A stretch of DNA of 62,108 nt, counting the filler, from Dimorphilus gyrociliatus (Eukaryota; Animalia; Annelida): the NCBI GenBank assembly GCA_904063045.1. It is 4 parts of 4 records of this genome, joined end to end, with 100 filler letters (N's around TTAATTAATTAA, not from the genome) between each part and the next. Parts side by side here need not be neighbours in the genome. Positions count along the whole stretch, not along the records: positions 18,111 to 46,938 come from CAJFCJ010000136.1; 3 more parts are not named here. One strand, 5' to 3'. Position 1 is the stretch's first letter, and the number at the start of each line of letters is the position of its first letter. Shown here piece after piece: positions 14,991 to 58,110 of the stretch. The notes under the pieces are model-generated. The model was not told the origin of the DNA. It searched no databases and saw only the letters and a program-made list of their open reading frames with translations. The position numbers and the translations under genes are program-made.

Positions 14991-14996
14991 CTGCTC

Positions 14997-15198
14997 TTGG
15001 CCACACCCTAGGCAGGTTAATTAAATTATAACTTGGCCAAACCTTTATTGGTAATTAAAGATGAGCCTTCAAGCTGACTAATCAGACTTATGTTTGGCCA
15101 ATGTTATAGCATTTTCTTGCGTAGGTTTTAAGATGTACATGTATATGTTGCATAAAATAATAGAGTTCAAGCATGTAAAATATAACCAAAGTTGTACA
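14997..15198 (-). mobile_element. Truncated copy (U3 portion) of the gypsy LTR
   Basis: Near-identical reverse complement of 23667-23868, ending in TGTACA at 15198. Confidence 0.9.
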
Positions 15199-16673: not shown

Positions 16674-17760
16674 ATGATTAAAATCTTAACAGCTATTGGA
16701 ATTAATATAAATCGTATTGGATTATCCAAAACAGTATTTGAAGTTTTGGCCATTCCTAAAGATTATTATAACAGCAAAACTATGGATATTTCCTACCGCA
16801 CCCGTCTCCAGTTATTTCTAGATATATGTATGATTGTGATAATAATCAACTATTTAATGAATTGGCACATTTTGAAAATGCTAAATGTACTCAATACCAT
16901 TACTAATGTTATTATGTGGGATAAGGCATTGAAACTACTCTCATTTGTGATAGTATTAGACAATGTTCCTATGGAGATGGTGAACTAAATTTTTGGTCTG
17001 TTTAAAGCAAAAATATAAAAGAAACGCTGTCACCATTTCACACTTCAAAATTCTAATATTTACAGAAAATAACATTTTAAAAATATTTTGCAAATGTAGA
17101 AATGAAAATATGTTTCTTTGAAATAATAAAATTTACAACAGCATTGTTGATTGTCAAAGGCGAAGATGAAATATTTTGTACAGCACCGAAAAAAGCTAAA
17201 TATAGAAATGTTTGCTATCTAACATACACTTCTTTATTTATTGCAAAACAAGCAATTCAAAAGAGATTTTGAAAAATTTCAAATATACTGCTTGGAAGTT
17301 TTTTACATTTTCTTCCGTTGAGAGCACACCAAAACAAAAACAATTTTTAACTTACCACAATAAAATCCAACAATAATTTTGAGAATTTCCTTTCGGATAT
17401 TTGGAACATTTGGTGTTTTTGGTCATATTTTTCGAAATTTTAATTCAATGCACAAAAAATCATCAAAATTTTTTAAACTTTGCATAGCATTTGCTGATTT
17501 TTTAACATCATTACATTTTTTAATGATAGTAATTTTTGATTGGATTCATTCTGAAGGCGATTATCTTAAAATTGAAGAATTTGGGAGATTTGATATTTTT
17601 TGCTCAGTTTTAGGAACTTTAGTAACATTTTCCATAGTATTTTCAATATCAGCAATTCAATTTCATTAAATTGTCTAGATTTATCAGAAAGTGTATATTA
17701 CAATGTTTATATTTGAACTTTTGCTAACTTATTAAATAAAACAGCAAATGCACAAAATAG
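16674..17760 (+). pseudogene. Degenerate LDLa-7TM receptor (GRL101-like) remnant
   Basis: LICDSIRQCSYGDGEL (LDLa-like); FGTFGVFGH...LCIAFADFLTSLHFLMIVIFD...FCSVLGTL (TM1-3). Stops and frameshifts. Confidence 0.55.
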
Positions 17761-18010: not shown

Positions 18011-18110
18011 NNNNNNNNNNNNNNNNNNNNNNNNNNNNNNNNNNNNNNNNNNNNTTAATTAATTAANNNNNNNNNNNNNNNNNNNNNNNNNNNNNNNNNN
18101 NNNNNNNNNN
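18011..18110. other. Artificial scaffold spacer (N44-TTAATTAATTAA-N44)
   Basis: Identical 100-bp construct with stops in all six frames occurs three times. Confidence 0.97.
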
Positions 18111-18120
18111 TAAATTATTA

Positions 18121-20230
18121 ATTTACAGCCACCAGTGTTTGCAAATTCACTACTAAGCTTTGTTGCATTTTGTGGCTATTACAGAAAATTTATACAAGAT
18201 TTGCAAGAGTAGCTAAACCTCTGTATATGTTAATGAAACTACATGGGAAAAAGGATAAATTGCAATGGACTGAGGAAGCCAAGCAATCATTTTTCAAGTT
18301 GAGAGATGCAGTAGTTAACCCTCCTGTATTACAACTACCTGATTTTGCTAAAGATTTTCACTTAACAACAGATGCATCGAATGTAGCTGTAGGAGGAGTT
18401 CTTGAACAAGTTTATGTAGATGAGAATGGAAGAAAACAATGAAACCCATTGCCTACGCTTCAAAACAATTCAACAATAATCAAATGAAATATGCAGCCTA
18501 TCAAAAGGAAGCATTTGGGGTTTACTGGGTTGTAAAGAAATTTTTACATTACCTTCAAGACAAGCCATTCTTTTTATATACTGACCATCAGAGTCTAGTA
18601 CAAACATTTAAGCAAAACAAATTGAATGTCAGCACAGCAAAATGGGTCATGGCTTTAATGGATTTAAAATTTACAATTAACTATGTGACAGGACGAAAAA
18701 ATAGAGCAGATGCATTAACAAGATTAGAAGAATATACACCCCCAAGGAAAGTAACATTTGAAGAGCTAATTCATGGAAAGATCAAAAAGGAGAATTCTCC
18801 CTCTATTTCAGTTAAAATGGAACAGTATGAACATACACCAGAGTTAACTTTTGTAGCTACCAGTGATAACAGTGAAGAGAAAATTGATTTGTCTTCTGTT
18901 GACTTACAGTCAGAGCAAGAAAAAGATGTGAATTTAAAATCAATTAAAGAATATTTAACATTGGATGGTCAGCTACCTATTCCTTATTTTGGAACTTTTA
19001 CACCTTTCATAATGGAGATGTTTGTTCACAAGGAAATGATCTGGATTATCCTTGAAGAAAGAAACATTCTGGTTTTACCTGACCATTTGATGCTAACTCT
19101 GCTCCCTAAATTCCATAAAAATAAAATTCACAATCACCATGGACCCAGAATGACATTACAAATAATTACAAAGACCTTTTGGCACCCAAAATTAAAGATT
19201 ATGATTGAGAATTCAATAAAGGATTGCACTTTGTGTGAACAAATGAATGGTAGGAGTAGAGTATACCCTTTGGTAGAAACCTTTCACCCTGCATCACCAA
19301 TGGAGTTGGTAGCCATGGATATAATGGGACCCTTACCCATGGTTAAGTCATACAGATTCATACTTGTGATAGTGGATCATTTCAGTAGATACACAGTTTT
19401 ATATGCACTCAAACAGCAAACCAGTAAAGAAATTGCAAACCTTCTTTTCAACAGATTTTTCCCCATTTTTGGAATTCCAAAACAAATGTTGACAGATCAA
19501 GGAAGAAACTTTGTTGGTAAAGCTTTTAAAGAGTTTATGAAGGTATTAGGTATTGAGAAAATCCAAACAACAGCTTATAGAAGCCAGAGCAATGGACTAG
19601 TTGAACGAAGAAATAGAGAAGTGAGGAAGGAAATCAATAAATTAGTGGTGGAAGAAAATCAGCATAACTGGGTTGCAAACCTACCCTTGATTCAAGCATT
19701 TTTGAATCAATCACCTGTAGGAAGTACAAGACTACCACCCCAGGAACTTCTTTTTGGCACCAGCACAAGAACACTGATTGATGTAACAATGCATACTACC
19801 TCTCCTGAAACAAATGTACTATTTGTATTCAATCACCAGCAGCAATTAGTACAGTTAAGAGCTACAGCCTTCTGTAAATCCATCATGGCAAAAGAACAAT
19901 ATAGGAAAGAAAGAATAGAAATCTAATCTTCCAAAATATTTTGAGGTTGATGATGAAGTATTCTTAAGAAATGATGCTGCAAGAATTGCAATAACAAAAA
20001 TCCTTCTTTAAAATGGTTAGGCCCATACCGAATAACAAAAGTCATCATCAAAAGTGGATATATGAAATACAAATGGATGATAATACATGCAAGTTGGTAA
20101 TGGTAGCAGATTAAGACTAGCCAATGAATCTAATAAGTTGGAAACAAGGAAAGAAGCAACAACAATCTTCACCTTGTGGAGAAGGAATAACACACCTCCA
20201 ATATCTTTCTCAGGTAGAAGGAAGAAATGA
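18121..20230 (+). pseudogene. pol: Gypsy Pol: RT thumb, RNase H, integrase (HHCC, DDE, GPY/F); several 1-nt frameshifts
   Basis: FCGYYRKFI; TDASNVAVGGVLEQ...PIAYASK...YTDHQSL; HHG...CTLC; AMDIMG, LTDQGRNF, SNGLVER. The GPY/F domain (FEVDDEVFLR, KWLGPYRITKV, YEIQ) is frameshifted at 19920-20130. Confidence 0.95.
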
Positions 20231-20256
20231 CTTCCAATTCCGTTGAAGAATCAAAA

Positions 20257-20560
20257 AGGCAAGAAGTCATTGCCTTGTGTGACACAGGAGCATTGAGATC
20301 CTTTATTACTGAAAAAGAAATCAGTTAATGGATGTTACAATTATGGATAAAGAAACAATTGCTTACCAATTATAACTTCAGCTGATGGGAAAGCTTTAAA
20401 GCAAAAAGGAAGCGTAAAGCTGAATATCCAATTTGCTGGAGAAAGTATGAAACAAGAATTTATAGTTATGGAAAATCTAGACATAGCAATAATACTTGGT
20501 TGTGATTTCCTACAAACTGTGGGAGCAAACCTCAATTTTGAAGCTAAACAGTGTTCTCTC
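20257..20560 (+). CDS. Retropepsin (A2 aspartic protease) downstream of integrase; C-terminal half in frame with the env ORF
   Basis: RQEVIALCDTGALRSFITE (D at 20281), then across two 1-nt shifts LPIITSADGKALKQKGSVKLNIQFAGESMKQEFIVMENLDIAIILGCDFLQTVG. Confidence 0.88.
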
Positions 20561-23500
20561 AAATTTGATAGAAGGAAAGGGAACCTGGCTGAAAGAATAA
20601 GGCAACCTCAACTAAACAAAGTCACTATAGCCATGATGGGACAGCATGACTCTTCATCAGAAAGTTCAGATAGTGATGACTCAGAGATGGAAGTTACTAA
20701 TTCTGATACTGGTTATGACACAAGCAATACTTTCAAAACAGACAGTAATTACAGTCTCAATGAACCTTCAAGCTCATCTGAAAGTGATGACACAGAAACA
20801 AATAATGAACTGGATCAAAATACAGATTCAGAGGCAAACATTATCTCTGATAGAGAAGATGAAATATCTAGTTCAGACGATGAGTCAATAATTATTGAAA
20901 GCGAAATTATTGATATAACCCATTCGGATAATGAGTCAATAATTATTGAAGGTGAAATTATTGACATAACCCATTCAGATAATGAGTCCCTCATAGTGGT
21001 AGATTCATCCCAAGATGAGAAAGAAAATACAAGTGACACAGACAATGAGTCAGTCATATTTTTAGATGAGACTAAAATCATCTCTGAACAATTAGATTCC
21101 CAACAAGAAGTGGAACCACAATATATAGAGTTAGAAGATGGAATAACTATCAGAGTGGAACAACAACACAAAACTTTCAACCATTCAACTATAGCCAACA
21201 CAGGAAGAGCTAACATGAAACAGATGTTGTGGCTTCCACTAATGATGACTGTAATGGTGATCTGTGGCTGCATCCACTCAATAACAGTCCCAAAACCATC
21301 CTACCAAGGTGCCCATGTTACAAGTGCAAACATTACCTTAACATTTAAACCACCGTTATACTTTTGTTCTAACCAACTACCAAGCCAGGCATTTGATCTA
21401 GCAGATGAGCCAACTTGTAATATAGAATCACAAGAAACCAAGACAATTACAGCTGATATCTATGAATTGAACTTGGAAGAAATTGAAACAAGAGCAGTAA
21501 AATGTCAAGTGTATCTAAGAACTAATTTTTACACTTACTATTTCTTTGGAGCAAAGAAGAGGAGGATTGTTAACTCAGTTATCAAAGTAACTCATGATCA
21601 ATGCAGACAGATGATAAAAGACAAACGATCTTTTCAAGGAAAACCTTTAATGATGAAAAGAAACACTTGGATCCACCAAGATCAGTTTCCTGCTGCCTAC
21701 ACATGGCCAACAACGACCAAGGTGCTGGAATACACCACAATTATCCAGTTTGGCAAAGCATATTGGCAACCTCCTAATATGAAAATTACAACTAATCTGG
21801 ACTACCTGGAAGATTGTTTACCAGGGCAGTCCTATTGTGAGACAGAAGAGGCAATTATTGTCTTTAGAAACCTCAAGAATAATTACACACTTGGGCAACA
21901 ATCACCATGGATAAAAATTAGCAACAGAATTAGTTGTATCAAATTTGCTGGTCACTATTCTTGTCCAGGGTATTCTATTCTGGACATCCCTTATCAAGAT
22001 AAGTTTATTGATGGAATTGGTGGTCCTGGAACAAAAGTACTAGTACCACTGGAGGAACAGAGTTTAATACAGGAAACAAGCAAGGAACACCTATACAATT
22101 TGCTACAATATCAGAAGATTGGCAAAAATGAAGAAAAACGACTATTAAACTATCCCAATAAAGTTAAAGAACAAATTATACTATACAAGCGAAACAACCC
22201 CTTACCAAGTCTTAACCAATGGTACAGAGAAACAAACACAAAGTATAAACTAATGAGAAATAAAGGCACACTCAAGGAAGTTGTGATATATCATCTACAA
22301 CAACCCATTAGTCCATCTTACTGGGAGCTGGATAACTATTATATCCAAGAAATGCTGCAAGCAGTCAATTGGACAAGGGCAACAAGACAATCTGTGACGA
22401 TTTCAAAATATGTATACAGTGAGAAAAGAATCAAAAAGAAGGTATTACCAACATTGGGCATATGGTATAAAGGACCACCAGCCAGAGAATTTAAGATTAC
22501 CTATGAAGGAATTTATTTTACTCTACACATGAGAATGGCTAAAAAGCAGATGAAGAAGGAAGCAAAACTGAAACATAAGATAAGTAAAAACCCATACCAC
22601 AAATTCCCATTGGAAATGAGAGAAGCTGCCCAAACATCTACCTTACTACATGGTATTGATTCAAATTTTAAGAATTTAAAAAAGTTTACCCAACAGCTGT
22701 CAAGTCTTCTCTGCAATCAATTTGTTCAAAGAAGCAGAATGATGGCATTACTAGCAAATTTGGATCCTCAATTGACCACAGTGTTAACAAATGAGTTGGG
22801 AATGCACAGTAGTCAGATGGGAGAATTAGCTATAATTAAACAATGTTCACCAATAGCCTCAACAGAAGTAGTTTGTGACTTAAGCATGATAAAAAAGAAT
22901 AACAAATGTTCTCAATTTTTACTTGTCACCATGAACAACCTGCTTTTCCAAGTAGAACCAGTTACTCATGTTTTACAGCAAGTCAATCCTGAAGAGATTA
23001 CCTATAATGAGTGTAAGTCTAACAAGTTATTCTACAAAACAACTCACAACCCATTAAATCCTATAAGAAACCAACCAATGAAAGACAAAACGTATGTGTA
23101 TTATTCAGAAAGAGGATGCAGATTTCACACTGTGTCTGCAAAATCCATGCAGTTACATATCCACAATCACCTTTCTGAACCAAAAATTGAAATTGCCAGA
23201 TTAGCTGATCTACTCCACCATGGGGTAAAGAAGGATATTGCATACCAGCACTCAAAAATTAAGCAAGTTATCAGTTCACTGGAACAGAAGCAGGCAAGGT
23301 ATGATAACATGGTCACTGTTGCAGAGAAAAATGGCATTGTACCCAATTTATCTGGAATTAAACAGTTTTTCCATAGTTGGTACTATAAACCTGGGAAAAC
23401 ACTTTATGTTATCATACGAAATATTTGTTTGAGTATTGTAGTGTCAATGGTATGTATCATCATTTTCAACTATATTATTGGAAGAAGAAAACAAAGAGAA

Positions 23501-23635
23501 GAAATTGCTACCCCAAGTGAGAGCACAGATAACTCTCCTGAAAACCCAAAACTAATGAAACAAAGTTGTAGCTTTAGTCAACATCAAACTAATGAAGAAG
23601 AACAACCACCTGTAATTCTCATTAAATCAAGATGA
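20351..23635 (+). CDS. env: Env polyprotein: protease half, acidic leader, signal peptide, class III (herpesvirus gB-like) fusion glycoprotein, TM, tail
   Basis: Open frame from 20351 (first ATG 20447). Signal peptide MKQMLWLPLMMTVMVICGCIHS at 21215. Cys-rich ectodomain with RATR furin-like site (22376-22387). LCNQ...LANLDPQ...GELAIIKQCSP resembles gB domain III. TM ICLSIVVSMVCIIIFNYIIG followed by RRK. Confidence 0.85.
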   Translation, partial: RNNCLPIITSADGKALKQKGSVKLNIQFAGESMKQEFIVMENLDIAIILGCDFLQTVGANLNFEAKQCSLKFDRRKGNLAERIRQPQLNKVTIAMMGQHDSSSESSDSDDSEMEVTNSDTGYDTSNTFKTDSNYSLNEPSSSSESDDTETNNELDQNTDSEANIISDREDEISSSDDESIIIESEIIDITHSDNESIIIEGEIIDITHSDNESLIVVDSSQDEKENTSDTDNESVIFLDETKIISEQLDSQQEVEPQYIELEDGITIRVEQQHKTFNHSTIANTGRANMKQMLWLPLMMTVMVICGCIHSITVPKPSYQGAHVTSANITLTFKPPLYFCSNQLPSQAFDLADEPTCNIESQETKTITADIYELNLEEIETRAVKCQVYLRTNFYTYYFFGAKKRRIVNSVIKVTHDQCRQMIKDKRSFQGKPLMMKRNTWIHQDQFPAAYTWPTTTKVLEYTTIIQFGKAYWQPPNMKITTNLDYLEDCLPGQSYCETEEAIIVFRNLKNNYTLGQQSPWIKISNRISCIKFAGHYSCPGYSILDIPYQDKFIDGIGGPGTKVLVPLEEQSLIQETSKEHLYNLLQYQKIGKNEEKRLLNYPNKVKEQIILYKRNNPLPSLNQWYRETNTKYKLMRNKGTLKEVVIYHLQQPISPSYWELDNYYIQEMLQAVNWTRATRQSVTISKYVYSEKRIKKKVLPTLGIWYKGPPAREFKITYEGIYFTLHMRMAKKQMKKEAKLKHKISKNPYHKFPLEMREAAQTSTLLHGIDSNFKNLKKFTQQLSSLLCNQFVQRSRMMALLANLDPQLTTVLTNELGMHSSQMGELAIIKQCSPIASTEVVCDLSMIKKNNKCSQFLLVTMNNLLFQVEPVTHVLQQVNPEEITYNECKSNKLFYKTTHNPLNPIRNQPMKDKTYVYYSERGCRFHTVSAKSMQLHIHNHLSEPKIEIARLADLLHHGVKKDIAYQHSKIKQVISSLEQKQARYDNMVTVAEKNGIVPNLSGIKQFFHSWYYKPGKTLYVIIRNICLSIVVSMVCIIIFNYIIGRRKQREEIATPSESTDNSPENPKLMKQSCSFSQHQTNEEEQPPVILIKSR
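20873..21000 (+). repeat. 51-bp (17-aa) coding tandem repeat SDDESIIIESEIIDITH / SDNESIIIEGEIIDITH / SDNESL
   Basis: Units start at 20873, 20924 and 20975. Confidence 0.9.
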
Positions 23636-23651
23636 AGGGACTCATCTTCAC

Positions 23652-23665
23652 AAAGAAGGGGGAAG
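23652..23665 (+). promoter_or_regulatory. Polypurine tract
   Basis: AAAGAAGGGGGAAG immediately before the LTR TG start. Confidence 0.85.
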
Positions 23666-23666
23666 T

Positions 23667-24301
23667 TGTACAACTTTGGTTATATTTTACATGCTTGAAC
23701 TCTATTATTTTATGCAACATATACATGTACATCTTAAAACCTACGCAAGAAAATGCTATAACATTGGCCAAACATAAGTCTGATTAGTCAGCTTGAAGGC
23801 TCATCTTTAATTACCAATAAAGGTTTGGCCAAGTTATAATTTAATTAACTTGCCTAGGGTGTGGCCAAGTTATAATTCAATTAACCTTCCTAAATGTTGA
23901 ACCTTGTAACATCCTGTTACTAAAGATAAATATGAACTACACATTTTGGCAACTGTAAAGTGATGATTGGATGTCAGAGACAAACCTCAAAGTATATAAA
24001 TCCTTATTATTCTCATTTGGCATGCAGCTTCCATCTGGACCCAAGGACCTGGGAAAATCATCTGGAAACAACCTCCACTGGAACCATCCATCTACTCCTC
24101 AACATTGGAAGACAGTTTGGTAATTTGGCAACCTGCTTTTACAAACTATCTACTCTGCTATCGAACTCTCATATTGTTACTTGCTTAAGTATTATTATTG
24201 CGAATAAACCGTTTTAATTTAAACATTTGTTTAAAGGTTCGAGTAGAACCAGTATTGTTATAACTTGCAAACGCATAGATTTTGCCAGCAAGAGCAGTAC
24301 A
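23667..24301 (+). mobile_element. 3' LTR, 635 bp, TGTAC...GTACA
   Basis: Same length as the solo copies. 36-bp tandem repeat at 23826-23897, TATATAAA near 23994 and AATAAA near 24203. Confidence 0.95.
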
Positions 24302-24303
24302 AT

Positions 24304-25380: not shown

Positions 25381-26629
25381 ATGAATGGAGTTGATCTTGT
25401 CTATAGAAGAATCAATGATCCGAGATATATGATTTCTGTATTTGTTAAGAAACTGCTGATTTTTAGACAAAAAGCAAATTGTCCACTTACAGATGGACCC
25501 AGACCATTGAATCTGGGAACACAAAATGGTAGACAAGTAATCAATGCATTTTAATCATTGAAGCGTTTCACTACCTCGATGGATGACCCTACAAATACAG
25601 GTGGAGATGATTGGATGGATTGGGATCAGACATTTTTATGGACAAAGAAAGATATTGCAACAAGGTCTCGCCATGCAGTTGGATTGGCTGGTGTTGGAGA
25701 AGTCTGTACAAAAAAGGGCTCGTCAATTAATGAATATATTGGTATGAGCTCTTGGAAAATTGCTGCTTATGAGCTTGCTCATAATCTTGGATCCTATCAT
25801 GATGGATCACAAACTAGTGCTACCTGTGGATCGAATAATCAATAAATTATGACACTTGCAATAGGCTCTCTTGATGTTGTCAATATCAGAAATTCTTTTG
25901 TATTTAGTCAATGTACAACTGACGCTATCTCTGACGTTGTTAATGGAAATAATTATCAAGGATTTCCAAGAACCTGCCTTATGAACAAAGTATGCAGTAA
26001 TGATGCATTCAATCATGATGAAATCTCTAGCGATGACAAACTTCCAGGTGTTAAATATTCATTGACTGAACAATGTGTGTTGAGACACGGTAATGGAGCT
26101 GTTCACAAGCCAGAGCTAATGTTTGTTGATGTCTCACTTGTAAGAAGAGAAATGCTTGCCATAGTCAAGACCCAGGAGCTGCGGATGGAAAGAGTGTAGC
26201 AGTAAGGGTTTGACCAGGGCCAATAGTCAAGCAATGATCTCAAATTCACCTTGCGACCCAAATCCTTGTAGGAATAGTGGTGTATGTTGTCAATACGGCA
26301 GTTCAGCTTATGTATGTGAATGTCCTGTAGGACGTGGCGGAAAGGATTGGAATAAAAATGAAAATGAAGGTGCACCTGCTCCAGACCAGCCTATAGTTCC
26401 AACTCCTCGTGTTCCAGGTCAGCCTAATGCTTCAACTGCTACTGTTCTAGATCAGCCTATAGTTCAAACTGTACCAACACCAGCCTGCACAGATCGAGAT
26501 ATTACATTTAACGTGCTTGGTTCAAATGGTAGAGAAACAATAGGTTGTAGTGATGGAGCAATGAGATTTGGAAAACCATTTTGCAATTCAATGGGAAATT
26601 ATTGCTGTCAATCATGCAGTAATGTTTGA
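25381..26629 (+). pseudogene. Reprolysin (M12B/ADAMTS-like) metalloprotease with EGF, Pro-rich and ShK-like C-terminus
   Basis: MNGVDLVYRR... with an in-frame TAA at 25552. AAYELAHNLGSYHDG (HExxH with H to Y); LPGVKYSLTEQC; CDPNPCRNSGVC...CECP; CTD...C...C...CCQSC. Confidence 0.8.
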
Positions 26630-27060
26630 ATTTAAGCAATAAACAGAAAAAATCAAAAACCACATGTAAATTTGAAAAATATTGGACTCACCTATAGGGG
26701 TGTCTGTATAAATAGGCTTAGAAAAAAATATTTGCACATGCGCAACAGTTCACAACATAACTACTTTGAAGTTACTCAACCAACTGTAGTACAATTGGAT
26801 TTTTTTTGAAAAGAGGTGAATGAAAGCCTATTAAAAAATATTGTAAATTTGTAATGAGAGCTCCTCTAAGTCAGTATGTTAATGAACTCAACCCTCAATT
26901 TAAGATTCCTATTAGGCTGTTTAAGGGTATGGATTATATTAAAGTTAAAGATTTGGTGATTTTCTTATCAATTACACCAGTATTATCATAAATTTCTTAT
27001 ATTTAAAGGTGTGCAATTCATGAAAGAACATAACATAATGAAGGAGGATGGAGGTTAATT

Positions 27061-28306
27061 TTGACATCAAATTTGTCACTTTTCACTCCTCCAGTTGCTA
27101 AGCATTCATCAAAGAGTCATGCCGATAATATGGTTGTACTGGGCAAAGGTTTAATTAAATCTGGACATAAGGTTAGCATTCTATGTCAAGGAACTGTTCG
27201 AATTGACAATCCGGGTAATATTTCACTATTTGATGTATATTCACCACTTTCTGAAGAAGATGACAAGCAGATTGGTGAAAGTGTGAATAGGGCTGCAGTT
27301 GATATGTTATATCAGAACGTATCTTATCTATCTATGGATAAAAATTTCAAACCCATGTGGAATGGTTTCATCATTGACTGTAAAGCAATGTTGGCTGATC
27401 CAAATATTGCAAAAACAACTAGATGAATTTGATTTAATAGTTGTTGATTATTTTTACTTTTGTGGTTTCTTATTGGTTGTATAAAAGTATAAAAAACCAT
27501 TTATTGTCTTTGAATGTACTTCCTCCTGTACATATTCACAAGCAATTGTCACATCACCAATGTCATGGGTTCCAGCATTTCTAAGTTTTTTAACTGATAA
27601 AATGACCTTTGTTGATAGAGCTAAAAGTGTGATGTCCTATATTTTTCTATCTTTTTTTACTGTTGTAATGGATAGAAATTTTGAGAAATTAAAAGCAGAA
27701 TTGAAAATTTCACCTGAGAAAAGTTTAACAAAAATTAGACAACAAGCTCAAATATATCTTGTAAATTCAAATCCAATTTTGGAATTTCCTCATCCTCTAA
27801 CTCCAAATGTAATACAAGTTGGTAGTATTCTAGCATCTCAACCAATAAATGTAACAAATATTGATCCTAAATTTGATGAAATTACATCTAAAAAGTAAAA
27901 AAAAACACTTTGTTTAAATGTTTAATTTTATTGTTAATTTTGCAGATTTGGTATAATTGCTTTTGGAAGTACTCTAGATTTTTGCAGTCATCCAAAATTA
28001 TTGACAAATATTCATAAAATTTTAATTCAATTTTCAGATATTCAGTGGATTTGGTCATTAAAATGCAAATTGGATGAAGATTATCCAAATATTCATACTT
28101 TTAAATGGATTCCTCAAACCTATCTCTTAGCAAAAGAAAACTGTGTTTTATTGATTTCTCATGGCGGTCTTAATTCTATTTACAAGTCTATGTATCATGG
28201 AACTCCAGTTTGTACTCAACTGATTTTATCAGAAATCAGGGATGGTCTGTCTGTCCATATCCAACATACAGCCCTGATTTGGGCTATTAAGGAACAGAAT
28301 AGTTAA
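27061..28306 (+). pseudogene. UDP-glucuronosyltransferase, frameshifted
   Basis: SHADNMVVLGKGLIKSGHKV; FDLIVVD; TDKMTFVDRAKS; PHPLTPNVIQVG; KWIPQTYLL...ISHGGLNSIYKSMYHGTP (UGT signature). Confidence 0.9.
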
Positions 28307-28399: not shown

Positions 28400-31035
28400 G
28401 GGGTTGACAGAAAATGTCCATGAAAGAAAACGTCCATTAAAATAAATTTCATTTAAATATAAATATGTGTTGAAAAAGTAAACCTTTGGTAAAAGAATAT
28501 GTTAAACATATAATTAATAAATGAAATATTCACAAAAAAAATCACTTAACTTTTCCTATTAGCTTAATTTTTTAGGAATTATATTTCCTTATGGAGTGAA
28601 AGAAAATGTCCATAAAGTGAAAGAAAACATCCATAAAGTGAAAGTAAACGTCCATAAAGTGAAAGAAAACGTCCATACAGTGAAAGAAAATGTCTATAAA
28701 CTAAAAGTAAATATCCATGAACTAAAAGAAAACATAAATAAAAATAAATTTCATTTAAATGTAAATCTATATTGAAAAACAAGTTAATAGAAAACTTTTC
28801 ATATATACAACTTTAGGTTTACCATATAAATTGTTTATTGATTATTTGTAAACAACTTTAAAAGAAAGACAAACTTTTTTCAAGTTTTACAATTAAATGA
28901 CCAGTGTTTTCAAGTAAAGTTTTTTGATATCAAGGTATTGTCAATTATTTTCAATAATATAATTCTGAGCAAAGCTGCAGAAGCTGGTTTGCATTAATTT
29001 CACCTGTTTTAAAATTTTCCCAAATTAAGAAAAGATCTTTTTGAATTTGGCTATAAGTCTTCCTTAAAAGCTTTTTGTACAGATTTATCATGTCTGCTTC
29101 CCTCTTTAACTCATCAATCACTAAATAAAAAGAAACATTTTCTCCAACAATTTTATTCAGCCTTTGATGATAACCTTCCAGATCATTATTTGTCCTTATG
29201 CTTTGATCAAAAACAGACCAAGTCTCTGGAGACCAAAATGTATTTTTTATCCAACTATTAGACACATAGTCCAACAAATCAGACAGTTTATTTTCTTTTG
29301 TCAGTTGATTTTGAATTTTAGTGAATTGATTTTCAATCATGCCATGAGGCAAATATGGCAAAGACATAATCATTCTCCTGGATTCCCAAGCTCCCTCTTT
29401 TTTTCTAAATTCCCTGCTATAACCAAGTTCCTTAAACAAAAAAATATTAACTGGATTGTTAAAAATTTTAGAAATCAATAAACCTGAATTTTTCTAAATA
29501 TTGCCTGAGACCAGTGAAATGAACATCCAGTCAAGACAGCATCAGGCCATATATTTTGTAAAGTTTTCCAAACAGCCTTTTCATAGTCTAAGACTATTTT
29601 CTTAGGAGCACAATTTTCAGCTAAATCCTTCACAGCCTTAAAAATTTAACATGATTGCTTATTAGTAAGTATATTTATGAAATGTAATTCTTACCTGGAA
29701 AAGTAGTTTATATGCTCTCTTTTTTTTAGAAGAACTTGCTTAAGCTGTCCATTTTTTTTCAAAAATACATGAATAGAGTACATTTGAATGAAAGGTTCAT
29801 TGGCAATCTTAAAAGTACCATCAAGGTACCAAATTTTCCCCTTTGACAAAAGCTCCAATTGATGATTTGTTGCAAAGATAATGATCCTCTCATTATTCAT
29901 ATTTATATCCTTCTTTAAAAATTCAGGAGGAATGAATGTCATATTCAGCTCAAAGTTTTTATCATTGGGTACAATAGGCCTGTTCTTCCTTCTATTCCAA
30001 TTTGCCACTTCTTTACAATTAATTATATTTGATATAGATAACCTCAATTCTTCTGTGAACTCTTCAGTACTCTTTTCTTGTCCTTGATTATTGTCTCCTT
30101 TCTCATCAATTTTTAATTTTTCCTCAGTCATGCTGTTATTCTCCTCAATATTCTTTTCTGGATATTCAACAATTGCTTCTTCCTTCTCATTAAGTTTTGC
30201 AGTAGAATTACTTTTTATTGGTACACTTTCCCTGCATTTTTTTGGTTCATCAATTCTCTTTAACATCACAAAACAGGTTTTTTTAGTTATTTTATAACAA
30301 ATAAAACAGAGTGGTGATGCTGTTGATGAATCTGGAAGAAAAAAAAACAGTAAATGTTTTTCAAATAGAAGATAGTACAAACCATGCAGACATTTTATAT
30401 GACAAATATGCAGGCACAATGAGCATTGGCCTTTTATTTGCCTACCAACAAATTTATCATTGCAAATAGAACACTTGTCCATTATTCAATATTTTTTCTA
30501 AAATATTGGAGAAAAAGAAGAGTTAAACTAAAATTAATAAATGAATTTGTCATATTATTATGATTATTTATGTAACAATTAGTATTTTGACAAAAACATT
30601 GAGAAAAAACTTCATTAACAAATAAAATTGCTAAATTTATGTTAGATTGATTATTAATAAAATAATCAATAACTTTTTAATCACAGAGATTATTAAGAAC
30701 AAAAAAACCTCAAAAAATTAAAAATTTCATATTACCTCAAGAGAGTGAAAATAGAAGAGGAAGTTGATGTTTTGTATCTCTTTTCCTGAAGATTTCTTCA
30801 TTTCTACCAGTTTTTTTAAAGTTTTGTGTTAATTTGTTTTTCAACATATATTTATATTTAAATGAAAATTTCTTTATTTTATGTGTTCTTTTGATTCATG
30901 GATGTTTTCTTTCAGTTTATGGACGTTTTCTTTCACTTTATGGACATTTTCTTTCAGTTCATGGACGTTTTCTTTCAGTTTATGGACATTTTCTTTCATG
31001 GATGTTTTCTTTCATGGACGTTTTCTGTTGCATCC
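28400..31035 (-). mobile_element. Mutator-like (MULE) DNA transposon, 2.6 kb, with subterminal 21-bp repeat arrays
   Basis: Ends GGGGTTGACAGAAAATGTCCA and (rc) GGATGCAACAGAAAACGTCCA. Arrays of GAAAGAAAACGTCCATAAACT-like units at ~28594-28735 and inverted at ~30893-31025. No TSD. Confidence 0.9.
28951..30482 (-). CDS. MULE transposase with N-terminal PHD-type finger, intron-containing, one frameshift lesion
   Basis: C4HC3 pattern after removing a 51-bp intron; WYLDGTFK; IVLDYEKA; GCSFHWSQA; RTNNDLEGYH. Confidence 0.9.
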
Positions 31036-33484
31036 GTTTTGTAGTTATCTCTTTTATATTAGACATATCTTATTACATGAATAAAATATTACACATCTTT
31101 TTTTCTAATTTTTCATATTTTCATTCAAATATTAAACCATTCTTCATATAAAAAATTGCTGTGGATGTTTTCTCCTAAGCTATGGACATTTTCTCCTGTG
31201 GACAGTTTCTCTTGTGAACATTTTCTCCCTAAACTGTTTTTTATACGTGAACACTTTTTAAGTAAAGTGGCTAAAGAATCACAAAAGTATTCATATTAAA
31301 TAGTGTACTGCTCTTGCTGGCAAAATCTATGTGTTTGCAAGTTATAACAATACTGGTTCTACTCGAACCTTTAAACAAATGTTTAAATTAAAACAGTTTA
31401 TTCGCAATAATAATACTTAAGCAAGTAACAATATGAGAGTTCGATAGCAGAGTAGATAGTTTGTAAAAGTAGGTTGTCAAATTACCAAACTGTCTTCTAA
31501 TGTTGAGGAGTAGATGGATGGTTCCAGTGGAGGTTGTTTCCAGATGATTTTCCCAGGTCCTTGGGTCCAGATGGAAGCTGCATGCCAAATGACAATAGTG
31601 AGGATTTATATACTTTGAGGTTTACCTTTGACATCCAATCATCACTTTACAGTTGCCAAAATGTGTAGTTCATATTTATCTTTAGTAACAGGATGTTACA
31701 AAGTTGAACATTTAGGAAGGTTAATTGAATTATAACTTGGCCACACCCTAGGCAAGTTAATTAAATTATAACTTGGCCAAACCTTTATTGGTAATTAAAG
31801 ATGAGCCTTCAAGCTGACTAATCCGACCTATGTTTGGCCAATGTTATAGCATTTTCTTGCATAGGTTTTAAGATGTACATGTATATGTTGCATAAAAGAA
31901 TAGAGTTCAAGCATGTAAAATATAACCAAAGTTGTACAATAGTATTGAGTTAAGTCTACAGTTTTCTAAAAGAACATCTATATTGAACTAAAGTGCACAA
32001 ATTTCTACCACAATTACATTTTTTAAGACTATTTGTGAATAAAATGGATAGGTTCTATTTGGACCAATACTTTGGTAAGTTGGTAAATAATTAGGAAGAA
32101 TGATTACAGTTGTGACAAACCAGAAATCCCTGCAAGTACAATACAACAAAGTACACACACGGAAAAAACATTTTCATTAAAGCAACAATTAATAAATTGC
32201 TTTGGTTTTGTTACTTTCATAAACCAAAATATGATTCCTTGAAGTTGAATTGTGGACTGTCAACTAAAGAGGTACAATTAATAGTTCACAAGATAAGATA
32301 TCACAATTACAATTGTAATAAGCAAGTTTTGGCATTACCATGTTTTTTAAAACAAGAGAGGTTAGAATTTCAGATACTGTAACCTCTATTGAAATATTAA
32401 AAGTACAGAATAGTGGGGACTGGTCAAAAACAGCCATAAATGAAATATATGAAGTTTAGATTTCAAGCTGGGAAATGGTTAGGAGGAACAAGATAAGTAT
32501 TGATATGTACTTAGGTGGGTCCCATCTAAGGGTTAGGGGCATTGAAAAAGGTTAGGCAAAAGCAAGGGCTAGGTCTTTAGTGCTTAAGGGATTAGCACAA
32601 TCAGTACAGATTGATAACCTCACAATTGCACTCACACTTCTAACCTTGTTAGGCTAAAGGTTGGTATGGCTGTTTAGGAATTGCTATAAAAAGTAGCTCT
32701 TCCTAGCCTAAGCTATTACTGTATCTCCAACAAACACCAGATACAGATTCTCAACACAGGTGAAGAGAACCTGCATTGCAATAATATAACAAAATCTCCA
32801 AGAAGTAAAGGGATAAAATATAATTGAATGGTGAGAATTATTTGAGGGGTATAAAGTCAATTTGAAGGCAGCATAATTACCTTTACCTTGCCTATTTAGC
32901 TGGTTGAGTTTAATATCCTCATTTTATTCAAAACAGACACAAATATTTTTTTCTTAGTTTATTGGACAGTGTAAGAGCTTGACCTAAATTAAAAAGATAA
33001 GAATATTATACAATGCTAAAAAATGTTTTTGTAAGGCTAATTTTAAAGGGTAATCAATAACATTTTGTATTAAAAAATTTTGGATTATAATAGAGAAATA
33101 GAGATAGAACCCTCATGAAGAGGAAGATAAATAAAGAGAAAGAAAGGACTTCAAGTACAAAGCTGGCATCCAAGTGAAACATAACAGTATTATAGACAAC
33201 AATACAGAAAGCCTTGAAAGAAAATGGGAGGGAAATTTAAAAATTTAAAAATTTAAAAATAGATTTAGGTCCAGTCTTACTAGTTTCTGGCATGCTTTAT
33301 TTTTTTTTGGCCTCTGTCACCTTGAGTATATTTGGTGTATGTTGAAAATTATTCTATATTTGCATATGATAGGTCTCAATTTTAGAAAAGTGAGACATCA
33401 GACAAAGGAATCTAAAAGAACATTTCCTGCATTTGAAGTGAAGCATGTCAAACCAGTTTTTCAGGTCTTTTAGTTGGCCTACAT
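31036..33484 (+). repeat. Segmental duplication copy A (copy B 43409-45763)
   Basis: Near-identical over ~2.4 kb, including the solo LTR and a truncated MITE (32415-32573). Copy B lacks 33334-33425 at an ATTT microhomology. Confidence 0.95.
31304..31938 (-). mobile_element. Solo LTR of the env-bearing gypsy family, 4-bp TSD ATAG
   Basis: 635 bp, TGTAC...GTACA, ATAG at 31300-31303 and 31939-31942. Confidence 0.95.
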
Positions 33485-40618: not shown

Positions 40619-42860
40619 GGATGCGACAGAAAACGTCCATGAAAGAAAATGTCCATAAACTGAAAGAAAACGTCCATGAACTGAAAGAAAATGTCCATAA
40701 AGTGAAAGAAAACGTCCATAAACTGAAAGAAAACATCCATGAATCAAAAGAACACATAAAATAAAGAAATTTTCATTTAAATATAAATATATGTTGAAAA
40801 ACAAATTAACACAAAACTTTATAAAAACTGGTAGAAATGAAGAAATCTTCAGGAAAAGAGATACAAAACATCAACTTCCTCTTCTATTTTCACTCTCTTG
40901 AGGTAATATGAAATTTTTAATTTTTTGAGGTTTTTTTGTTCTTAATAATCTCTGTGATTAAAAAGTTATTGATTATTTTATTAATAATCAATCTAACATA
41001 AATTTAGCAATTTTATTTGTTAATGAAGTTTTTTCTCAATGTTTTTGTCAAAATACTAATTGTTACATAAATAATCATAATAATATGACAAATTCATTTA
41101 TTAATTTTAGTTTAACTCTTCTTTTTCTCCAATATTTTAGAAAAAATATTGAATAATGGACAAGTGTTCTATTTGCAATGATAAATTTGTTGGTAGGCAA
41201 ATAAAAGGCCAATGCTCATTGTGCCTGCATATTTGTCATATAAAATGTCTGCATGGTTTGTACTATCTTCTATTTGAAAAACATTTACTGTTTTTTTTTC
41301 TTCCAGATTCATCAACAGCATCACCACTCTGTTTTATTTGTTATAAAATAACTAAAAAAACCTGTTTTGTGATGTTAAAGAGAATTGATGAACCAAAAAA
41401 ATGCAGGGAAAGTGTACCAATAAAAAGTAATTCTACTGCAAAACTTAATGAGAAGGAAGAAGCAATTGTTGAATATCCAGAAAAGAATATTGAGGAGAAT
41501 AACAGCATGACTGAGGAAAAATTAAAAATTGATGAGAAAGGAGACAATAATCAAGGACAAGAAAAGAGTACTGAAGAGTTCACAGAAGAATTGAGGTTAT
41601 CTATATCAAATATAATTAATTGTAAAGAAGTGGCAAATTGGAATAGAAGGAAGAACAGGCCTATTGTACCCAATGATAAAAACTTTGAGCTGAATATGAC
41701 ATTCATTCCTCCTGAATTTTTAAAGAAGGATATAAATATGAATAATGAGAGGATCATTATCTTTGCAACAAATCATCAATTGGAGCTTTTGTCAAAGGGG
41801 AAAATTTGGTACCTTGATGGTACTTTTAAGATTGCCAATGAACCTTTCATTCAAATGTACTCTATTCATGTATTTTTGAAAAAAAATGGACAGCTTAAGC
41901 AAGTTCTTCTAAAAAAAAGAGAGCATATAAACTACTTTTCCAGGTAAGAATTACATTTCATAAATATACTTACTAATAAGCAATCATGTTAAATTTTTAA
42001 GGCTGTGAAGGATTTAGCTGAAAATTGTGCTCCTAAGAAAATAGTCTTAGACTATGAAAAGGCTGTTTGGAAAACTTTACAAAATATATGGCCTGATGCT
42101 GTCTTGACTGGATGTTCATTTCACTGGTCTCAGGCAATATTTAGAAAAATTCAGGTTTATTGATTTCTAAAATTTTTAACAATCCAGTTAATATTTTTTT
42201 GTTTAAGGAACTTGGTTATAGCAGGGAATTTAGAAAAAAAGAGGGAGCTTGGGAATCCAGGAGAATGATTATGTCTTTGCCATATTTGCCTCATGGCATG
42301 ATTGAAAATCAATTCACTAAAATTCAAAATCAACTGACAAAAGAAAATAAACTGTCTGATTTGTTGGACTATGTGTCTAATAGTTGGATAAAAAATACAT
42401 TTTGGTCTCCAGAGACTTGGTCTGTTTTTGATCAAAGCATAAGGACAAATAATGATCTGGAAGGTTATCATCAAAGGCTGAATAAAATTGTTGGAGAAAA
42501 TGTTTCTTTTTATTTAGTGATTGATGAGTTAAAGAGGGAAGCAGACATGATAAATCTGTACAAAAAGCTTTTAAGGAAGACTTATAGCCAAATTCAAAAA
42601 GATCTTTTCTTAATTTGGGAAAATTTTAAAACAGGTGAAATTAATGCAAACCAGCTTCTGCAGCTTTGCTCAGAATTATATTATTGAAAATAATTGACAA
42701 TACCTTGATATCAAAAAACTTTACTTGAAAACACTGGTCATTTAATTGTAAAACTTGAAAAAAGTTTGTCTTTCTTTTAAAGTTGTTTACAAATAATCAA
42801 TAAACAATTTATATGGTAAACCTAAAGTTGTATATATAAAAAGTTTTCTATTAACTTGTT
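40619..42860 (+). mobile_element. Second MULE copy, inverted relative to the first, 3'-truncated
   Basis: Reverse complement of 28778-31035 minus one 16-bp repeat unit. Transposase at 41156-42687 has the same ORF translations. Confidence 0.95.
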
Positions 42861-43408
42861 AATAGCATAATCCATTTTTGGTGATAATTGTTGTATCACA
42901 CACTACTTGAACTGATTTTAATTCTGTACAAGTATTTAAGGTTGTTAGATCACCAAGCCATGTACTGTGCATTCCATGCTTAGATCCAAGTATTGTTGGT
43001 AGTTGAGGTGCCAATGGTGTAATGGAGTAATGCTCTAATTGGACCAGTACTTTGGTAAATTGATAAATGATTAGAAAGGACGAATACTGTTCTGAAGAAG
43101 CAGAAATTCCTACAATTACAATACAACAAAGTACACTGTCTATCAACCAAATCAAAAGAATGGGCTCTATATTGGAAAAAGGAGTTAAGATAACAGATGA
43201 ATAAGTAAGCATTGATGCTATCACTGAGAATGATGTTGTTAATAATGGTTCAGATGTTGAAAAAAATGGAAAACAAAACGATGAAGACATCACACAAGTT
43301 GTGGGAAATAGTTATGTTATTGTTCAAAACAATTATACAGAAGCTATGATTGGGTGTAACATTGAAATAACAACAGAAATTGAATTCATATTCTGGCAGC
43401 TAATATAT

Positions 43409-45763
43409 GTTTTGTAGTTATCTCTTTTATATTAGACATATCTTATTACATGAATAAAATATTACACATCTTTTTTTCTAATTTTTCATATTTTCATTCA
43501 AATATTAAACCATTCTTCATATAAAAAATTACTGTGGATGTTTTCTCCTAAGCTATGGACATTTTCTCCTGTGGACAGTTTCTCTTGTGGACATTTTCTC
43601 CATAAACCATTTTTTATACATGAACACTTTTTAAGTAAAGTGGCTAAAGAATCACAAAAGTATTCATATTAAATAGTGTACTGCTCTTGCTGGCAAAATC
43701 TATGTGTTTGCAAGTTATAACAATACTGGTTCTACTCGAACCTTTAAACAAATGTTTAAATTAAAACAGTTTATTCGCAATAATAATACTTAAGCAAGTA
43801 ACAATATGAGAGTTCGATAGCAGAGTAGATAGTTTGTAAAAGTAGGTTGTCAAATTACCAAACTGTCTTCTAATGTTGAGGAGTAGATGGATGGTTCCAG
43901 TGGAGGTTGTTTCCAGATGATTTTCCCAGGTCCTTGGGTCCAGATGGAAGCTGCATGCCAAATGACAATAGTGAGGATTTATATACTTTGAGGTTTACCT
44001 TTGACATCCAATCATCACTTTACAGTTGCCAAAATGTGTAGTTCATATTTATCTTTAGTAACAGGATGTTACAAAGTTGAACATTTAGGAAGGTTAATTG
44101 AATTATAACTTGGCCACACCCTAGGCAAGTTAATTAAATTATAACTTGGCCAAACCTTTATTGGTAATTAAAGATGAGCCTTCAAGCTGACTAATCCGAC
44201 CTATGTTTGGCCAATGTTATAGCATTTTCTTGCATAGGTTTTAAGATGTACATGTATATGTTGCATAAAAGAATAGAGTTCAAGCATGTAAAATATAACC
44301 AAAGTTGTACAATAGTATTGAGTTAAGTCTACAGTTTTCTAAAAGAACATCTATATTGAACTAAAGTGCACAAATTTCTACCACAATTACATTTTTTAAG
44401 ACTATTTGTGAATAAAATGGATAGGTTCTATTTGGACCAATACTTTGGTAAGTTGGTAAATAATTAGGAAGAATGATTACAGTTGTGACAAACCAGAAAT
44501 CCCTGCAAGTACAATACAACAAAGTACACACACGGAAAAAACATTTTCATTAAAGCAACAATTAATAAATTGCTTTGGTTTTGTTACTTTCATAAACCAA
44601 AATATGATTCCTTGAAGTTGAATTGTGGACTGTCAACTAAAGAGGTACAATTAATAGTTCACAAGATAAGATATCACAATTACAATTGTAATAAGCAAGT
44701 TTTGGCATTACCATGTTTTTTAAAACAAGAGAGGTTAGAATTTCAGATACTGTAACCTCTATTGAAATATTAAAAGTACAGAATAGTGGGGACTGGTCAA
44801 AAACAGCCATAAATGAAATATATGAAGTTTAGATTTCAAGCTGGGAAATGGTTAGGAGGAACAAGATAAGTATTGATATGTACTTAGGTGGGTCCCATCT
44901 AAGGGTTAGGGGCATTGAAAAGGTTAGGCAAAAGCAAGGGCTAGGTCTTTAGTGCTTAAGGGATTAGCACAATCAGTACAGATTGATAACCTCACAATTG
45001 CACTCACACTTCTAACCTTGTTAGGCTAAAGGTTGGTATGGCTGTTTAGGAATTGCTATAAAAAGTAGCTCTTCCTAGCCTAAGCTATTACTGTATCTCC
45101 AACAAACACCAGATACAGATTCTCAACACAGGTGAAGAGAACCTGCATTGCAATAATATAACAAAATCTCCAAGAAGTAAAGGGATAAAATATAATTGAA
45201 TGGTGAGAATTATTTGAGGGGTATAAAGTCAATTTGAAGGCAGCATAATTACCTTTACCTTGCCTATTTAGCTGGTTGAGTTTAATATCCTCATTTTATT
45301 CAAAACAGACACAAATATTTTTTTCTTAGTTTATTGGACAGTGTAAGAGCTTGACCTAAATTAAAAAGATAAGAATATTATACAATGCTAAAAAATGTTT
45401 TTGTAAGGCTAATTTTAAAGGGTAATCAATAACATTTTGTATTAAAAAATTTTGGATTATAATAGAGAAATAGAGATAGAACCCTCATGAAGAGGAAGAT
45501 AAATAAAGAGAAAGAAAGGACTTCAAGTACAAAGCTGGCATCCAAGTGAAACATAACAGTATTATAGACAACAATACAGAAAGCCTTGAAAGAAAATGGG
45601 AGGGAAATTTAAAAATTTAAAAATTTAAAAATAGATTTAGGTCCAGTCTTACTAGTTTCTGGCATGCTTTATTTTTTTTGGCCTCTGTCACCTTGAGTAT
45701 ATTTCCTGCATTTGAAGTGAAGCATGTCAAACCAGTTTTTCAGGTCTTTTAGTTGGCCTACAT
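43409..45763 (+). repeat. Segmental duplication copy B
   Basis: See copy A. Includes a truncated MITE at 44788-44946. Confidence 0.95.
43677..44311 (-). mobile_element. Solo LTR (duplicated with the segment), TSD ATAG
   Basis: Same sequence and flanks as 31304-31938. Confidence 0.95.
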
Positions 45764-57310: not shown

Positions 57311-58110
57311 TGTTCATTTGTTCACAAAAAGTACAATCCTGTATTGAATTCTCAATCATGATCTTTAATTTTGGATGCCAAAAGGTTTTTGTAATTATTT
57401 GTAATGTCATTCTGGGTCCTTGATGATTGATTGTGCATTTTATTTTTATGGAATTTTGGGATCAAAATTAGTATCAACTGGTCAGGTAGAACTAAGATGT
57501 TTCTTTTTCCCACAACAATCCATATCGTTTCATTGTGAACAAACATGTCCATTACAAATGGGGTAAAAGTTCCAAAGCAGGGGAGAGGTGGTTGTCCATC
57601 AAATATTAAATACTCTTTAATTGATTTTAAATTGATATCTTTCTCTTGTTCTTATCTTCATAATCATTTCCAGAAGCCACAACTAATAGATCTTGTGTGT
57701 GTTCATATACTTTCATTTTCACTGAGGTAGGAAGAGGCATTTCCTCCTCAGTTTTCCTTTGAACTAGATCTTCAAATGTTAGGCATTTGTATGAATTCAA
57801 ATAAGCCAAAAGGTGTCTTGAATGCTGTTTTAGGCCTATCTTCTTCCTTGATATTAATATGGTGGTATGGACTTGTCAAATCCATTATAGAAAAGAAGTT
57901 ATTTCCTCCTCCCAGATGATCAAATAGACCCTCTTGATTTGGCAGTGGATACTTGTTCTTGATAGTCATGTTGTTGAATTTTCTGTAATCTACACACATT
58001 TGTAGACTACCTTCCTTCTTTCTTGCAAAGATAATTGGTGAAGCCCAGTGTACACTTAGAAATAGTGGTAACCATAACCCTAACTCAGTTTCATTTTGAT
58101 AAATTCCCCT
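57311..58110 (-). mobile_element. pol: Internally deleted gypsy pol remnant, sister of the env-bearing element
   Basis: WASPIIFARKKEGSLQMCVDYRK...KTAFKTPFGLFEFIQMP is fused at ~57781 to TFEDLVQ...FHKNKMHN...QDCTFCEQMN, which is homologous to 18752-19250. Confidence 0.88.

Follow-up and report, generated by a model that had tools for sequence, protein, structure and literature searches.

The acidic linker that joins a retropepsin to an envelope glycoprotein (Env) in a Ty3/gypsy element of the annelid Dimorphilus gyrociliatus is, on balance, best regarded as a translated, likely disordered and fast-evolving spacer with a drifting number of repeats, and not as a selected reader of SUMO chains. 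The first-pass annotation of the window (the whole stretch of 62,108 nucleotides that was analysed) had suggested that the hydrophobic cores of this linker could be a tandem array of SUMO-interacting motifs (SIMs) within a leader directed against silencing. One duplicated motif, EIIDITHSD, does seem from its sequence to resemble a real SUMO-binding site, that of RNF4; the array of SIMs as such has probably arisen as a side effect of duplication.

The domain order of the element, RT thumb, RNase H, H2C2 and rve, is that of Ty3/gypsy elements (Metaviridae). Pfam recognizes RT_RNaseH (4e-19), Integrase_H2C2 (5e-9) and rve (3e-13) in pol, the RT thumb upstream of RNase H is supported by tblastn to Pol relatives, and WxGPY matches to Pol tails lie at 20005-20073. 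Further downstream, an ORF of 1094 codons, 20351-23635 (+), contains in one frame the protease C-half, the linker, a signal-like helix, the ectodomain and a transmembrane (TM) helix. The features are as follows:

18119..19926 (+): RT thumb, RNase H and integrase of a Ty3/gypsy pol, in several frames, the longest ORF being 18424-19926
19927..20259 (+): integrase C-terminal (GPY-type) remnants, split over several frames, from three-frame translation
20260..20316 (+): retropepsin N-half, DTG at 20281-20289, in a frame that differs from that of the long ORF
20351..20641 (+): retropepsin C-half, the first 97 codons of the 1094-codon ORF
20642..21214 (+): acidic Ser/Asp/Glu-rich linker, 191 codons, likely disordered
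20872-20988 (+): 51-bp (17-codon) tandem repeat, 2.3 copies, 89% matches, bearing IIIE(S/G)E-IIDITH
21107..21168 (+): conserved island (E)PQYIELEDGITIRVEQ, the sole part common to a more distant family
21175..21217 (+): candidate 3' splice sites, AG ending at 21194 and at 21203, ahead of the Env ATG at 21215
21215..23635 (+): class III fusion glycoprotein, with a signal-like helix (~21215-21289) and a TM helix (23423-23479) predicted by hydropathy
23652-23665 and 23667-24302 (+): polypurine tract and 3' LTR of 636 nt, TG...CA

A 4-bp target-site duplication flanks a solo LTR, and a loose end resembling a primer-binding site (PBS) was found in one of the four runs, the PBS-like 12-mer starting 3 nt past the LTR. 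The 5' part of the element is missing from the window at an assembly gap (18011-18110), beyond which one run contig has 2,488 letters. Copies were compared as contigs from four of the six listed runs (two studies). All four show an identical series of one-base indels relative to the window across the RH-IN-protease region; the frame breaks of the window are therefore probably assembly errors or peculiar to its copy.

A catalogue of gypsy elements with gB-type envelopes already exists. In the accessible portions of the survey by Chary and Hayashi (PMC13524379), 1,512 env-bearing gypsy elements have an Env of the F or HSV/gB type; among them, Annelida_Polychaeta_Dgyr_errantivirus_1 is gB-type, with 7 copies; its LTRs measure 631 and 636 nt, the stretch between them ~8,048 nt, and its PBS starts 3 nt after the LTR. 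As far as that description goes, our element shares with it the Ty3/gypsy RH-IN region and a class III Env ahead of the 3' LTR, and is close to it in its LTR of 636 nt, in its internal length (8,036 in window coordinates, to which about a dozen one-base differences are to be added) and in a PBS-like 12-mer identical at 11/12 positions, whereas the chromodomain published for the Pol end is not recognized in its broken Pol tail. Judged by dimensions and PBS, the element probably is, or is sister to, the catalogued one. In the accessible main text of the catalogue, 'protease' occurs once (in the canonical order), and 'acidic', 'SUMO' and 'linker' do not occur.

The window is animal DNA with assembly gaps, and other pieces of this and other elements lie in it. 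Two solo LTRs, 31303-31938 (-) and 43676-44311 (-), are 97% identical to the LTR of the element, carry the 4-bp target-site duplication and sit in a 2.3-kb duplicated block (31036-33346 and 43409-45716, 99.5%); a truncated LTR piece lies at 14996-15198 (-). A sister gypsy element, 57312-58047 (-), is a broken RT-to-integrase fragment lacking RNase H, with 85% DNA identity in the integrase. Another element is present twice in opposite orientation (28400-31030 and 40625-42860, 99.8%). Its ends are inverted arrays of 21-bp repeats, and it contains two ORFs (a Cys-rich start and a WYLDGTF motif); it has no Pfam match at E 0.01, and we presume from the motif that it is a Mutator-type DNA transposon. 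Host sequences include UDP-glucuronosyltransferase exons at 27034-27898 (+), an EGF-domain exon at 26165-26629 (+) and LDLa-LRR-TM receptor fragments resembling LGR/GRL101-type GPCRs at 47428-48576 (-), backed by LRR and LDLa matches, and at 17364-17669 (+), assigned by eye only.

The long ORF opens with a retropepsin C-half located after the integrase. Pfam RVP_2 matches it at 21.8 bits (cut-off 20.3), the profile iE is 6e-9, and among solved structures an ASPRV1-type protease comes closest to it (E 0.015). The N-half matches the profile weakly when taken alone (score 3.7) and is 53% identical over 17 aa to the DTG regions of two Pol proteins. In the window, the DTG motif is followed by a stop and is not in frame with the C-half, so that the protease is split and the in-frame D(T/S)G of an active retropepsin is lacking from this copy. 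The main contig of three of the four runs has a 58-nt deletion inside the protease, and the whole precursor is consequently not made from those copies; run X1 spans the region without the deletion. The gene model P0139 shares the post-integrase C-half at 58% identity, and conservation extends through the VTxAMM boundary (VTIAMM being common to P0139 and the ORF of the element). None of 120 long Pol relatives, many of them Gmr1-type with the integrase ahead of RT, has a DTG-type motif after the integrase, and 64 have one before it. Alignment of the protease to metagenome contigs gave four loci, all ordinary PR-RT-RH-IN elements without an Env match, and to viral contigs none. Exact-phrase searches of the open-access literature returned no description of a second or post-integrase protease, nor of a retropepsin after the integrase joined to Env via a long acidic leader; those worded for a class III Env returned no paper either.

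The model P0012 is a chain of pieces from a related element: PR-RT, env (68% identical) and LTR. Its pre-RT stretch is retropepsin-like (Atlas 0.93, with few shared features) but lacks D(T/S)G, and profile tests of it give weak results: hhalign assigns a probability of 0.7%, and the score of 5.1 exceeds 100 of 100 shuffles. Given these tests and the lack of a match to this stretch in the Atlas structure rows, relocation of the protease remains a lead: a decay of the usual pre-RT protease, with the working enzyme relocated to the head of the env ORF, is a doubtful if conceivable proposal, drawn from this one chimeric model. Three protein relatives are D. gyrociliatus gene models. Public models splice pieces of this element family onto host domains, the protease half to TIR in P0139 and PR-RT-env-LTR to TSP1-C1q in P0012; these fusions are probably annotation artefacts and possibly exaptation.

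That the linker is coding and in frame with the retropepsin and Env is borne out: its 191-codon frame was open in none of 20,000 shuffles, which rules out a chance ORF, and the other five frames carry 3-35 stops. No stop lies between linker and Env, the open stretch being 288 codons long. Asp and Glu account for 30-32% of residues 98-263. The single-sequence fold of the leader is uninformative, with a mean pLDDT of 36.8; it draws strands at residues 257-260 and 266-269, in the island. Pfam has no family for 20795-21214 and recognizes only RVP_2, RVP and a weak Phlebo_G2_C on the whole ORF. A search with residues 1-300 gave one match among 5,497 candidates, covering the protease only, and a full-length ORF search matched none of 2,983 candidates of 601-1915 aa.

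The eight peptides that had been singled out as SIMs are all present in ORF 20351-23635 (+), and the tandem duplication of 51 bp is equally real (20872-20988, 2.3 copies, 89% matches). The cores are:

20840-20851 (+): IISD
20888-20905 (+): IIIESE
20906-20929 (+): IIDITHSD copy 1, a SIMb-like core
20939-20956 (+): IIIEGE
20957-20980 (+): IIDITHSD copy 2, a SIMb-like core
20990-21010 (+): LIVVDSS
21053-21070 (+): VIFLDE
20990..21070 (+): the LIVVD and VIFLD cores, diverged copies of the xDNES-core unit according to a codon table of four units
21122-21139 (+): YIELED

The SIM consensus used for scoring is psi-psi-x-psi or psi-x-psi-psi. Four of the eight peptides (IIDI twice, LIVV and VIFL) fit it, and none fits the strict xxDLT core. 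These four cores, which have acidic flanks, derive from two duplicated units, and their excess over chance is borderline. The bare psi-psi-x-psi count exceeds that of shuffles with p=0.035 in 20835..21140 and p=0.007 in the whole linker. When acidic flanks are required, four cores are found against 2.0 expected (p=0.08), and with one repeat unit omitted three against 1.4 (p=0.12) in 20835..21140 and three against 0.8 (p=0.03) in the whole linker. Likewise, 1 of 46 equally acidic windows in the 120 Pol proteins contains four cores. An (S/T)D(D/N)ES unit, at 20873, 20924, 20975 and 21038, precedes IIIES, IIIEG, LIVVD and VIFLD, so that these cores are not independent; as IIDIT is in addition present twice through a recent duplication, the array has about two independent origins. 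What had been presented as a poly-SIM array is thus mostly the duplication of one or two units. IIDIT-type cores themselves are rare (0 in 160,984 Pol residues). At least seven substitutions in three core codons of the four xDNES units have always spared the second-position T and kept hydrophobicity, and a hand count puts the chance of all of them staying hydrophobic at about 0.06.

Variation between copies gives little sign that the linker protein is constrained. Among the differences listed, near-identical copies have 1 silent and 5 replacement changes in the linker; the corresponding numbers are 7 and 2 in RH-IN (Fisher p=0.04 for linker versus RH-IN), and 3 and 3 for Env. In two of the four runs, one variant has a Thr in place of a core Ile. 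A sister copy ~87% alike shows 7 silent and 16 replacement codons, from the 26 of 33 differences listed, and its silent fraction is close to the neutral expectation of 0.26 (p=0.39). These counts, small and taken among the differences listed, lean towards a linker without protein-level constraint. In two of the four runs, the sister contig skips 102 nt, from 20898 to 21001, exactly two 51-bp units, and thereby lacks IIDIT; it also fuses an RT-like motif straight to the linker. This copy appears to be an internal deletion derivative, possibly dead, and the loss of units need not then reflect selection. All linker indels seen keep the frame, and repeat number varies between copies.

A third, more distant family, present in four of four runs, matches 21107-21168 only, with 8 differences in 62 nt. 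Its flanks are unlike those of the element, loose ends fall at the island limits in all four runs, and an acidic, unalignable stretch precedes the island. The conserved element is hence the island PQYIELEDGITIRVEQ at the edge of 20835..21140, and not the repeat array. For the idea that cores are kept while spacers drift, the outcome leans negative, since the rearranged sister lacks both IIDIT units and the third family retains just the YIELED island; the internal units do stay hydrophobic. The island pattern had no match in metagenome and viral contigs. As a separate matter, a role for RNA structure at the island is unsupported, seven windows giving no signal (z from -1.5 to +0.6).

The Env is predicted to have the signal peptide, class III ectodomain and C-terminal TM helix of a gB-type errantivirus glycoprotein. 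Its signal-like helix begins at ORF residue 289. ESM Atlas places it with the Monjiviricetes_fusion and Rhabdo_glycop clusters (0.95), and Foldseek of the model has HSV-1 gB as best match (E 5e-12), the others being gB or rhabdo-, chu- and nyami-like G. The model has a mean pLDDT of 53.6, mostly 75-92 in the fusion-domain part, and as TM-scores are low (0.11-0.23) the gB match rests on domains. A search of viral contigs with Env alone gave no loci. An Env fragment of a more distant family, 42865-43023 (-), is 57% identical to P0005 and 44% to the Env of the element. P0013 (631 aa; a cluster of four members on contigs of 7-9.5 kb) is a stand-alone class III-like glycoprotein without Pfam family, related to this Env at E 4e-4.

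SUMO takes part in transposon silencing in flies and worms, which counts in favour of the reading in which the cores are working SIMs. A cleaved leader of protease and linker would then bind SUMO chains by avidity, as RNF4 does, and would counter SUMO-dependent silencing either as a decoy or as a protease directed to SUMO, the duplication having raised its valency; we hold this reading to be rather unlikely. In the accessible portions of the RNF4 studies, chain binding needs two type-b SIMs together with acidic linker residues (PMC3901395, PMC4083429), two such SIMs being sufficient (PMC3901395), and EIIDITHSD closely resembles the SIM2/SIM3 peptides shown (PMC4083429). The two SIMb-like IIDIT cores lie 17 residues apart with an acidic spacer, and their rarity in Pol and the hydrophobicity retained across diverged units argue in the same direction. 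So does the long Env leader of FIV, which, according to the accessible part of PMC10128041, can act as an autonomous anti-host protein. Against working SIMs stand the absence of the strict core, the single independent origin of IIDIT, the sister contig without either copy and the lack of protein-level constraint. Moreover, cleavage by signal peptidase would leave the leader attached to its hydrophobic stub, and its release would take a further step, as happens with retroviral signal peptides. An exact-phrase open-access search combining SIM and retrotransposon retrieved, by title or abstract start, no transposon-encoded poly-SIM.

Two further readings would leave the linker without a role of its own. 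In insect errantiviruses, spliced env is the rule, and a spliced RNA read from ATG 21215, or from another ATG nearby, may here be the main source of Env, with protease and linker a rare read-through or Pol-linked product and the linker, seldom translated, a tolerated tail. The AGs ending at 21194 and 21203 are the most pyrimidine-rich of the 10 AGs in 21120-21215 and lie just ahead of an ATG that has A at -3. Of the 12 Env relatives, 6 open with a Met and signal helix of their own, and a leader of protease plus acidic linker is present in none, but it was the gene caller that set these starts, in many cases on short contigs. The 58-nt-deleted protease copies that dominate three of the four runs agree with splicing; the open frame across linker and Env, and the alteration of ATG 21215 in some sister contigs, do not, and we consider this reading quite unlikely. 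Very unlikely, in our estimation, is that protease and linker are a decaying, functionless passenger captured with env from another element. The near-neutral evolution of the linker, a protease broken in the window and deleted in most runs, and the non-canonical domain order, met in none of the 120 Pol relatives, would suit a passenger, as would the variable position of env among gB-type elements (GAG-ENV-POL, ENV-GAG-POL) in the accessible text of PMC13524379. A passenger is difficult to reconcile, however, with a protease C-half conserved in P0139 through its boundary, an island kept in a family that has lost alignable flanks, and linker indels that all keep frame.

If the linker is a spacer, as we favour, a protease-linker-Env precursor would be translated and inserted in the ER at the internal signal, which would leave protease and linker on the cytosolic side. 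Signal peptidase would release Env, and the linker would hold the dimeric protease off the membrane. Extended hydrophobic strands (the VTIAMM boundary and the conserved YIELEDGITIRV island) would be offered as processing or docking sites, and the linker strands may thus have a role in processing. Changes by slippage in how many xDNES-core units there are would cost little, and an I/V/L plus D/E/S composition, together with duplication, would largely account for the resemblance to SIMs.

Comparison with known systems shows partial likenesses. With RNF4-type poly-SIM proteins (STUbL), the linker shares an acidic and probably disordered region with hydrophobic cores in tandem, and a motif similar to SIM2/SIM3; it differs in having DIT instead of DLT, a 17- instead of about 12-residue spacing, no RING domain and cores that are not conserved between subfamilies, and SUMO binding is here putative. 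The domesticated retropepsins Ddi1/DDI2 and ASPRV1 have the retropepsin fold in common with the element, whose protease, in contrast, lies inside an LTR element and is fused to Env. The parallel previously drawn with ubiquitin-directed Ddi1 is rejected, as Pfam finds neither UBL, UBA nor the Ddi1-type Asp_protease domain in the whole ORF. FIV Fsp, MMTV SP and HERV-K SP are leaders of retroviral class I Env proteins. Like them, the leader is long, cytosolic and precedes an internal signal sequence, but it has at least 290 residues, is acidic and contains a protease.

The most far-reaching proposal combines decay of the pre-RT protease with an active retropepsin moved to the head of the env ORF and an expanding poly-SIM tail, the leader being a SUMO-chain-targeted protease or decoy; we give it little credence. 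A leader that did bind SUMO chains would give the transposon a countermeasure of its own against SUMO-dependent silencing. Should the post-integrase protease be the working one, the Gag-PR-RT-RH-IN-Env layout assumed for these elements, and the way their polyprotein is thought to be processed, would change.
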